Positions 36,301 to 39,300 of a DNA stretch of 64,000 nt are shown piece after piece (the first letter of the stretch is position 1; each line of letters begins with the position of its first letter). Made by a program: the position numbers. The DNA lies in the NCBI RefSeq assembly GCF_058153355.1, contig NZ_CM177019.1. One strand, given 5' to 3'.

Positions 36301-39300
36301 CATCACTCTGGATAAGCTGCTCGATAAACTGCCGGATGTGGTTTAAGGAGGAACAATGTCATACTCGCTTTTTGACAAAGACGAGCACTGGCATAAGCCA
36401 GAGCAGGCGTTTCTCACCGATGACCATCGGACCATTCTGCGCTTCGCCGTAGAGGCGCTAATGTCCGGTAAAGGAGCGGTGCTGGTGACGCTGGTGGAGA
36501 TACGCGGCGGCGCGGCGCGCCCGCTCGGAGCACAGATGGTGGTGCGCGAAGATGGTCGTTACTGCGGTTTTGTCTCTGGCGGCTGCGTGGAGGCCGCTGC
36601 CGCTTTTGAAGCGCTGGAGGTGATGGGCTCAGGCTGCGATCGCGAAATTCGCTATGGCGAAGGTTCGCCGTGGTTTGACATCGTTCTGCCCTGCGGCGGT
36701 GGGATCACGCTGACGCTCCATAAACTACGCTCGGCACAGCCTCTGCTCGCCGTGCTGAACCGCCTGGAACAGAGAAAACCGGCGGGTCTGCGCTACGATC
36801 CGCAAGCTCAATCGCTGGTGTGCCTGCCCACGCAAACCCGAACGGGCTGGAATCTCAATGGCTTTGAGGTGGGGTTCAGGCCATGCGTCAGGCTGATGAT
36901 TTACGGACGTTCTCTTGAGGCGCAGGCAACCGCGAGTCTTGCAGCAGCCACAGGCTATGACAGCCATATCTTCGATCTTTTTCCGGCCTCAGCCAGCGCT
37001 CAGATCGATACCGATACGGCGGTCATTTTGCTGTGCCATGATCTCAACCGGGAGCTGCCAGTGTTGCAGGCCGCGCGAGAGGCAAAACCCTTTTATCTCG
37101 GCGCATTGGGCAGCTATCGAACCCACACGTTACGTCTGCAAAAGCTCCACGAGCTAGGATGGTCCAGGGAGGAGACAGCGCAAATCCGGGCACCCATCGG
37201 GATATTCCCCAAAGCCCGGGATGCGCATACTCTGGCACTCTCTGTGCTGGCAGAAGTCGCTTCTGTACGTCTCCATCAGGAGGAGGATTCATGCCTGCCC
37301 CCGTCGTCGTGATCCTTGCGGCCGGGCGTGGAGAGCGCTTTCTCGCCTCCGGGGGAAATACCATAAATTAAGAGAAAAATCTGCAGTAGCCGTTTTAGAA
37401 AATCACCTAAATCGTTTAAAAGAGCGCCCAACCCATAGTGGGCGCTCATCGCCTTGTGTAACTTATTCAGCAACGCGCGCCCTCGCCGGACTAAAGCGCA
37501 CCGGCCTTCTGGCGTGCGGTAACAAAGGTCAGTACGCCAGCGCAAAGGAGCAGCACGCTACTCATAGCAAACGTGCTCTGCCAGCCAAGGCGGTCAAACA
37601 CAATGCCTCCTGCCGTTGATCCAAGGGCGATGGCGAGCTGAATCACCGCGACCATGAGCCCGCCTCCGGCTTCGGCGTTGTCAGGCAACGTACGCGCAAT
37701 CCATGTCCACCATCCGGTTGGCGCAGCGGTGGCCAGCATGCCCCAGAGCCCTAACAGCAACGAAACCGTCCAGACCAGATGCCCGGTCAGCATCAGGCCG
37801 ATGGCAATGACGGCCATAAGTCCGGGTATGGCCATCAGCGTGGGGTAGAATTTTCTGTTGAGAAATGCCGAAACAACCAGCGTGCCAATAAAACCGGCCA
37901 CGCCGATAATCAGCAAAATCAACGACAAGCCTAAGGAATTAACCCGTGTCACCGACTCCAGAAACGGGCGCACATAGGTGAATAGCGCAAACTGCCCCAT
38001 GAAAAACAGGCCACAAGCTATCATGCCGACCACAACCATGCGGCGGCTAAATAAGCGGAATACCGTGCCAAATGACGTGTGGCTTTTATTCGCATCCATA
38101 CTGGGCAGGCTGATGCACTGCCAGATAAAGGCGACCACCGCGATGGGCACCAGGCACAAGAAAGCGCCTCGCCATCCGACCGTGGCACCCAGATAGCTTC
38201 CCAGCGGCGCGGCCACGACCGTCGCCAGCGCATTACCGGCATTGAAAATCGCCAGCGCACGCGTGACCTGTTGCTGCGGCACCAGACGAATCGCCGTTGC
38301 CGCAGACATCGACCAGAATCCGCCAATCGCCACACCAATCATCGCGCGACCGATCATATACATCAGATAACTGGAAGCCAGCGCAATAATAAGCCCCGAT
38401 ACGGCCATCAGAACCGTCATCCCCAGCAGCAGGAACTTACGATTCATCTTTCCAGCTAGCGTTGAAAGCGTCAGGCTGGTCAGAACCGCCAGCGCGCCGG
38501 AGATAGCAATCCCCTGCCCTGCCAGCCCCTCCGTCACGCCTAAATCGCGGGCAATCGGCGTGAGCAGGCTGACGGGCATAAATTCAGAAGCAATCAGCAC
38601 AAACACGCACAGGGTCATGGCAAAAATACCGCCCCAGTATGCGCGCTGATGATGAGGTGATGGTGTTTGGTTTAGCGTCGACATAGTGAAATTTCACGAA
38701 GGCCAGGATAAAAGCCACCAGCCTATGGCCGGTGGCTTTGCATCAATTCAGGAGAGGTTTTATTTCAGTTTGGTCTGGAAAAATTGTTCGAACTTCGCGA
38801 AAGGTATTTTTCCGGCAACGTTATCGTACAGATCCACGTGATTTGCCCCAGGAACCACTACCAGCTCTTTGTCTTTACTGCCGACCGCCTTATAAGCATC
38901 TTCAGCAAAATAGCGTGAATGCGCTTTCTCACCGGTCACGATAAGCGTCGGAATGGTGATTTCACTGGCGTAGCTGAGCAGCGGCATATTCATAAACGAC
39001 AGCGGCATCGTTGCCGTCCACGCCCCGGTCGAGTTCACGGATCGTGCATGAAAACCACGCGGCATACGATAGTAATCGAAGAACTCTTTCAGTACCGGAT
39101 GCGGATTTGCCGGCAGCGTTTCTGGCAGAATACGCTCGCCCGCACTGACCTTGCCGTTGCTGTCGACATTAATATCATGACCACCGTGAGCGAACGTTCC
39201 GCTCTGCGCATCCTTCCAGCGCTGTTCATTCAGATATTGCAGAACAGCACGACGGTCGGCGGTAGAATAACGGTCTTTGCCATCCCCCACACCATGGCCC

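Follow-up and report, generated by a model that had tools for sequence, protein, structure and literature searches.

Gene content around the paoD 3' end

The window, meaning the whole 64,000-nucleotide stretch of contig NZ_CM177019.1 that was analyzed, is Escherichia coli chromosome. Its ecp-ykgJ-yagU-paoABCD genes are 96 to 99% identical to RefSeq E. coli, and the E. coli locus that served as the source of RefSeq gene annotation (L001) is 99.4% identical to the window. The 3' end of paoD is overlapped by a 26-codon open reading frame (ORF), which we refer to as the stub. The features considered here are listed below.

32509-33198, paoA (ORF call)
33195-34151, paoB (ORF call)
34148-36346, paoC (ORF call)
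36356-37312, + strand, paoD, XdhC-family Moco insertion chaperone, the last intact paoABCD gene (ORF; RefSeq annotation of L001)
37278-37287, + strand, Shine-Dalgarno-like AGGAGGAGGA, inside the paoD codons for Q-E-E-D (read directly)
37291-37371, + strand, stub ORF, 26 codons plus TAA, a MobA-like NTP-transferase remnant (translation, ortholog HMM)
37291-37370, + strand, DNA truly of NTP-transferase origin, 80 of the ancestral first 81 nt (alignments A1 and A2)
37361-37362, + strand, derived 1-nt deletion, ancestral CCC to CC here (ACC CAT to ACC AT, 37361-37363; alignment A1)
37369-37371, deletion junction; A37370 is assignable to either parent (1-nt microhomology), and the stub TAA spans the junction
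37370-37389, + strand, last 20 nt of a deleted alpha/beta-hydrolase gene (...K-E-K-N-L-Q-stop; 20/20 match)
37390-37466, no strand assigned, downstream region of that hydrolase gene (chimeric-query match, alignment A2)
37491-38618, - strand, MFS transporter gene, the first intact gene past the scar (375 aa in the annotation of RefSeq relatives)
38760-39818, - strand, PETase-like alpha/beta hydrolase, gene 2 of a recurrent LysR-hydrolase-MFS module
40083-40967, + strand, LysR-family regulator of the same module
54651-54726, - strand, tRNA-Thr (thrW), followed by proA and proB

The stub context reads ...CATCAGGAGGAGGATTCATGCCTGCC.... The stub ATG (37291-37293) lies upstream of the paoD stop TGA (37310-37312), which gives a 22-nt overlap, and the frame translates as MPAPVVVILAAGRGERFLASGGNTIN before ending at the TAA at 37369-37371. 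An earlier note on this DNA, made from the sequence alone, had described a strong ribosome-binding site and an ATG in the end of paoD that open a 26-codon frame, and direct reading of the sequence agrees with it in both coordinates and description. In Pluralibacter (L004), the same element stands ahead of the intact gene (alignment A1), and in the window AGGAGGAGGA is the ribosome-binding site that the lost gene left behind.

The note had also read the encoded peptide as the N terminus of a MobA-like nucleotidyltransferase. A profile HMM built from the 26 full-length proteins encoded directly 3' of Enterobacterales paoD scored 30.3 bits against the stub (E = 1.7e-11), and VVILAAGRGERF aligned to profile positions 1 to 24, which form a glycine-rich nucleotide-binding loop with the pattern h-h-L-A-A/G-G-x-x-x-R-F/M ... 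H-K. The conserved H-K is gone from the window through the 1-nt deletion but is kept in K-12 and in strain 7/2. A complete domain of this kind spans ~180 to 200 aa; here, only 26 codons are present, with no downstream homology in any frame.

Full-length relatives and their family

The earlier note expected that a full-length nucleotidyltransferase gene would follow paoD in other genomes. We searched 80 loci encoding PaoD relatives, taken from species-representative genomes, and tblastn with the stub found a match directly after paoD in enterobacterial loci, at 61 to 87% identity over 18 to 24 residues (a range that covers the 25 loci with E ≤ 2e-4). Each match was the start of an intact ORF of 176 to 199 aa. 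A combined ORF and HMM scan located a same-strand full-length gene directly after paoD, with a start that overlaps paoD, in 26 other Enterobacterales species/loci (275 to 312 bits), as had been expected. Eight Rhizobiales loci likewise have a same-strand gene after paoD, which is more divergent, and a few Pantoea and Brucella-type loci carry the transferase gene on the opposite strand.

The correspondence extends to the DNA. Two loci encoding a protein named by NCBI from Enterobacter oligotrophicus (L094 and L095) contain paoABCD and a 184-aa gene whose start at 8001, set against a paoD end at 8022, again gives an overlap of 22 nt; their DNA identity to window positions 32324 to 37367 is 89.6% and does not extend past the stub. 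Across these loci and L096, which is described below, DNA identity runs through paoD into the stub at 89.6 to 92.4% and halts at 37367 to 37370. The first 81 nt of the Pluralibacter gene are 87.7% identical to the stub. The stub thus shares with the full-length members of the pao-linked orthologous group its strand, its paoD-overlapping start, and continuity of sequence.

These comparisons also bear on whether the resemblance is a chance match of a short, glycine-rich ORF. The stub is indeed short, and an NCBIfam search with the 26-mer alone returned 0 matches. Chance would, however, have to account for the ortholog-profile score and the tblastn matches at the orthologous position, as well as for stretches including the stub that are 82 to 92% identical in DNA to genuine full-length genes, in register and at the orthologous position. 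We therefore consider a chance match vanishingly improbable, and the MobA-like reading of the N terminus holds.

We next placed the full-length relatives among known families. The L004 protein matched Pfam NTP_transf_3 (PF12804) with an E value of 2.6e-23. The best NCBIfam match of a full-length relative was TIGR03310 (MocA/YgfJ) at 84.7 bits, which is below the equivalog cut-off of 186.45, and it is the C-terminal half of these proteins that matches, at model positions 74 to 186. Identity of the full-length protein to E. coli MocA was 21% over 115 residues (E = 5e-4), and its nearest relative of solved structure was 2WE9, a mycobacterial MobA/MocA-related protein. Because of the sub-cut-off MocA score, the low MocA identity, and this nearest structure, the pao-linked family is, as judged from sequence, a distinct branch of the PF12804 MobA-like transferases. 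This refines the MobA/MocA-like label of the earlier note. E. coli MocA (YgfJ), a CTP:molybdopterin cytidylyltransferase, shares PF12804 with the full-length relatives but is a distant paralogue rather than an orthologue of the pao-linked family, and its gene is at the ygf/xdh locus, away from pao. A TAAG/LAGG specificity motif is associated with MocA-type enzymes; we did not use it as evidence. By family and context, the product of the full-length gene is probably a Mo-molybdopterin cytidylyltransferase dedicated to PaoABC.

Related systems have been described. The earlier note had stated that PaoABC uses a cytosine dinucleotide cofactor (MCD) made by a MocA-type enzyme, and published work shows that PaoD receives MCD from MocA (PMC3909100). 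It had also stated that XdhC-like chaperone genes are often followed by such transferase genes, a linkage documented in other bacteria: Bacillus subtilis pucA-pucB, xdhC-mocA on pAO1 of Arthrobacter nicotinovorans, and the xdhC-mocA operon of O. carboxidovorans (PMC2997495). In those pairs the chaperone gene is followed by a cotranscribed MobA/MocA-like gene, and the full-length relatives of the stub are arranged likewise after paoD, whereas E. coli pao keeps only 80 to 81 nt of the transferase gene. In the reviews consulted, paoD is the last gene of the E. coli operon, which is given as paoABCD (PMC3909100, PMC2997495).

The deletion junction and the undeleted arrangement

To define the left side of the junction, we aligned the stub with its relatives. 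Homology to the transferase gene extends through ...CATAAATTA (nt 81) and stops at 37370, so the ancestral remnant comprises 81 nt, or 27 codons (M...THKL). All outgroups have the codons ACC CAT AAA/G (T-H-K), as do E. coli strain 7/2 (L084) and the K-12-type loci L002 and L003, whereas the CC state (ACC-AT AAA) occurs in the window, in L001, and in O157 Xuzhou21 (L085). Loss of the one C changes the reading frame: TIN and a stop replace THKL, and the TAA arises across the deletion junction.

The right side of the junction has a different origin. A full-length alpha/beta-hydrolase gene that two E. coli strains, 2017-19-1CC (L098) and FDAARGOS_1373 (L099), carry in genomic islands ends exactly in AAGAGAAAAATCTGCAGTAG (37370-37389 of the window). 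A chimeric query that joined the hydrolase 3' end to window positions 37390 to 37800 matched FDAARGOS_1373 (H164) unbroken to query position 477, equivalent to window position 37466, at 97.1% overall; homology thus continues 77 nt beyond the hydrolase stop. Together, the hydrolase-tail and transferase homologies show that nt 81 of the transferase gene meets nt -20 of the hydrolase gene at the junction. L099, the one E. coli island identical in this 3' flank, has an additional MFS-Lrp pair separating its hydrolase gene from the MFS gene.

Other sources for the spacer were also considered. The 3' flanks of the MFS module elsewhere (L088 to L092) lose homology ~25 nt past the MFS stop and therefore do not explain 37372 to 37468, and a blastn-short search of the spacer against the 80 paoD loci returned only noise. 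We had suspected that the AT-rich segment 37372-37425 was a frameshifted continuation of the transferase, as HKLREKSAVAVLENHL seemed to keep the register and 12/13 nt match Pluralibacter. This candidate was rejected: its extension score was reached by 913 of 2,000 shuffles, and alone it scored -1.9 bits. The segment is instead the hydrolase tail and its flank. Farther along, folding revealed a GC-rich 9-bp hairpin at 37422-37447 (-18.3 kcal/mol, z = -2.2), with UUUU after it on the minus strand. It is probably the terminator of the convergent MFS gene; a simple consensus terminator scan called no terminator at this hairpin.

Two contigs preserve the undeleted order. In L096 and L097, a 5'-truncated paoD is followed by a complete transferase gene (184 aa, with 92% of residues identical to L004), a hydrolase gene (- strand), response regulator and histidine kinase genes, and farther 3' by cupin, CMD, flavodoxin, alpha/beta-hydrolase (+ strand), MFS (- strand, 375 aa), and PETase-like hydrolase (- strand) genes. 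Their DNA is 92.4% identical to the window over the truncated paoD and stub and 81% identical in the MFS gene. Measured on L096, the E. coli state lacks 5675-12775, or 7,101 bp. The contigs bear the label Salmonella enterica, and their TraI, helicase, and recombinase genes mark them as a probable mobile element. Given this mobile-element character, the truncated paoD, and the 81% identity of the MFS gene, they demonstrate that the arrangement exists rather than prove that it is the direct ancestor.

A blastn search with the Pluralibacter gene found no full-length copy in 5,426 complete E. coli genomes; 1,046 of them matched, none beyond nt 1 to 81, and 0 of the 5,426 exceeded 15% coverage of the gene. 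The truncation that the earlier note proposed is therefore borne out across the E. coli genomes searched, with the first 81 nt or less retained.

A junction of this kind could also arise if a foreign island carrying the MFS, hydrolase, and LysR genes had inserted into the transferase gene, making the junction an insertion boundary. The LysR-hydrolase-MFS module does occur in unrelated contexts in other Enterobacterales, and the paoD-to-thrW region is highly variable between E. coli genomes. An insertion, however, should have left the 3' part of the transferase gene on the right, and none was found in the window or among the complete E. coli genomes searched; moreover, L096 and L097 carry the hydrolase gene, whose tail makes up the 20 nt beyond the junction, on the 3' side of their intact transferase gene, which fits one deletion. 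We thus regard insertion as very unlikely. With the junction partner (the 20/20-nt tail and its 77-nt flank) and the undeleted arrangement both in hand, we conclude that the stub is very probably a dead 5' fragment of a MobA-like nucleotidyltransferase gene left by a ~7.1-kb deletion. The earlier note was thus correct to see a truncation junction here, but it took the junction for the edge of neighboring accessory DNA; since the deletion brought up the distal part of the stub's own neighborhood, with the hydrolase tail adjoining, the junction is not the edge of a new island.

On the deletion model, the transferase gene would ancestrally have been the fifth gene after paoABCD, translationally coupled as in related bacteria, and the alpha/beta-hydrolase gene would have lain farther downstream, convergent with the MFS transporter gene. 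A single ~7.1-kb deletion in the E. coli lineage would then have joined transferase nt 81 to the last 20 nt of the hydrolase gene, removing the rest of the transferase gene and about seven genes (the hydrolase, the two-component pair, cupin, CMD, flavodoxin, and most of the alpha/beta hydrolase). Since they are located within or beside paoD, the ribosome-binding site and ATG both survived. The window lineage would subsequently have lost one C, giving the TAA stop. E. coli PaoABC matures with MocA (ygfJ), encoded elsewhere, and redundancy with MocA would reasonably have permitted loss of the transferase.

The pao block itself is variable within E. coli, and a second deletion scar lies upstream of paoA. 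About 1,400 genomes retain yagU but lose homology to the window at ~32264 and have no pao at all, and in one pao-less genome (L087) the whole pao block is missing. We tentatively raise the possibility, which we hold to be somewhat less than an even prospect, that the whole block (from ~32263 to the thrW side) is a trimmed, horizontally exchanged Enterobacter-type cluster, pared down from either side by nested deletions at microhomologies. The proposed source cluster would have the order MFS-paoABCD-transferase-detoxification genes.

Origin of yagP and fate of the stub

The window arrangement of paoD, stub, and MFS gene is found in 912 complete E. coli genomes, and in ~2,690 others paoD is followed by a pseudogene annotated as "LysR substrate-binding domain." In pseudogene-type genomes, homology to the window stops at 37366 (sampled rows). 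In K-12-type L002, the stub ATG opens a 136-codon frame that reads MPAPVVLILAAGRGECFLASGGNTHK and continues directly as CIGWRQ...; its UniRef name is YagP. The gene order in O157:H7 Xuzhou21 is paoD-stub-MFS-hydrolase-LysR1-ykgR'-hypothetical-SDR-LysR2, with LysR2 full length and reading ...GTG AAT CATAAG TGT ATC.... The K-12 state is a ~6.13-kb deletion from the CATAA of the stub to the CATAA of LysR2, and the fusion is in frame. Accordingly, yagP consists of the stub fused to the last 110 codons of a LysR gene; the same fusion occurs in L002, L003, and those sampled genomes that have paoD but not the MFS arrangement.

Since its 5' end is the stub and its remainder is a LysR C terminus, yagP is a two-step chimera whose 5' 26 codons are the transferase stub, and the 6.1-kb deletion between CATAA pentamers that produced it would be the later event in K-12-type strains. 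yagP and the window stub share their first 26 codons, the Shine-Dalgarno sequence, and the ATG overlapping paoD. They differ in that yagP has undergone the extra 6.1-kb deletion and LysR fusion, whereas the window keeps the older stub-hydrolase tail-MFS state; the window contains no copy of the LysR gene of yagP and no yagP fusion. Databases label yagP as a LysR fragment. A literature search on yagP returned nothing on its origin, and no source was found that mentions its transferase-derived 5' end.

Because the ribosome-binding site and ATG survive, ribosomes may still make the 26-residue peptide, without the rest of the ~184-residue protein and thus without the C-terminal half that resembles MocA in the full-length relatives. 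The short ORF might then have been kept as useful, either as a coupled mini-ORF for paoD expression or mRNA stability or as a PaoD-interacting peptide or YagP fusion. Its strong Shine-Dalgarno sequence and ATG overlapping paoD could be read this way, as could its presence in every pao-positive E. coli locus examined and the known interaction between PaoD and MocA (PMC3909100). Against this, the Shine-Dalgarno sequence and the first 7 codons are constrained by paoD itself and are kept because they are paoD coding sequence. Neither length nor sequence of the peptide is conserved across lineages: the product is 26 aa in the window and O157, 35 aa in strain 7/2, and 136 aa in K-12. In a comparison among four alleles only, the part that does not overlap paoD is no better conserved than its flanks (89.7 to 96.5% identity versus 96 to 98%), and K-12 has R16C at a residue that is invariant in 26 of 26 orthologs. 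A selected role is therefore very unlikely, and we infer that the stub is a nonfunctional remnant, with no predicted function for the peptide.

The stub is an ordinary pseudogene remnant rather than a new kind of element, but it reveals where the 5' end of the K-12 pseudogene yagP truly comes from. It also provides a base-pair-resolved case of successive microhomology deletions eroding the variable region beside the thrW hotspot, and it nominates an uncharacterized, pao-linked PF12804 subfamily as a candidate for biochemical study. Unlike E. coli, related enterobacteria have a presumably dedicated transferase within the operon, and the findings fit the reliance of the best-studied MCD enzyme of E. 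coli on a cytidylyltransferase encoded ~2.7 Mb away. If the pao block is indeed a trimmed cluster, then loss of the transferase would have left PaoABC maturation dependent on the unlinked MocA, a natural rewiring of a cofactor pathway that could be reversible by restoring the full-length gene.

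yagP and other alleles at the paoD 3' end

Three features of other E. coli loci bear on the 26-codon transferase stub that overlaps the end of paoD:

L002 6392-6802 (K-12-type E. coli): yagP, an annotated pseudogene that is absent from the window
L003 6310-7665 (E. coli MARGA_4): paoD, interrupted close to its 3' end by an ISEc52 insertion
L084 6069-7081 (E. coli strain 7/2): paoD allele that is one codon shorter

We found that yagP is an in-frame chimera, in which the 26 codons of the stub run into 110 codons from the C-terminal end of a LysR gene; an intact copy of the latter is present in O157:H7 (L085 8440-9339). 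The fusion originated in a 6.1-kb deletion between CATAA repeats. In MARGA_4, the stub and yagP are intact past ISEc52. The stub of strain 7/2 is markedly nearer to the alleles of Pluralibacter and of L096, a contig with the predeletion gene order, than to other E. coli alleles; its divergence is ~10%, versus ~3% in the flanks, which could reflect either local recombination or the retention of an older allele.

A scar upstream of paoA

A second deletion scar lies 5' of paoA:

32263-32345: remnant of an MFS gene

Here, a ~69-nt piece of the gene's 5' portion (…NDLQGDAELTITGFLIGFCIAQL) is fused to its own last codons (…TKA*), with a 7-nt microhomology, CACAACT, at the join. In L095, an E. oligotrophicus-type locus, the gene lying upstream of paoA is intact (398 amino acids). 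The homology of pao-less E. coli to the window stops at the same point as the scar, directly after GTGACAA, which sets the left end of the variable pao block at ~32263.

Genes to the right of the stub

Two blocks follow the stub:

37491-40967 (also L088, L089, L090, L032, L040, and L065): MFS (-), PETase-like hydrolase (-), and LysR (+) genes
41058-54648: 13.6-kb stretch from the LysR gene to thrW

The 13.6-kb stretch encodes oxidoreductases, hydrolases, aldo/keto reductases, and LysR regulators, and as a whole it was covered to at least 80% in none of the complete E. coli genomes. Positions 46859-48764 are 90% identical to aldo/keto reductase genes of L094 and L095 (E. oligotrophicus-type loci), where the full-length transferase gene is ~6 kb upstream of them; this match therefore looks like residual synteny with an Enterobacter-type neighborhood.

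The hydrolase whose 20-nt tail adjoins the stub is intact within a large detoxification-type island of E. coli FDAARGOS_1373 (L099) and 2017-19-1CC (L098), which in FDAARGOS_1373 is located at tRNA-Gly, beside xdhA. Besides this alpha/beta hydrolase, the island carries nitroreductase, hydrolase, cupin, CMD, flavodoxin, MFS, and aldo/keto reductase genes and a heavy-metal two-component system. Its relatives are found on plasmids of Klebsiella, Yersinia, and E. albertii.

The LysR, PETase-like hydrolase, and MFS genes form a recurrent three-gene module that occurs in differing contexts in other Enterobacterales. In the Xanthomonadales Frateuria and Pseudoxanthomonas, the trio also adjoins homologues of paoD, and a functional or cotransfer link between it and pao is hinted at.
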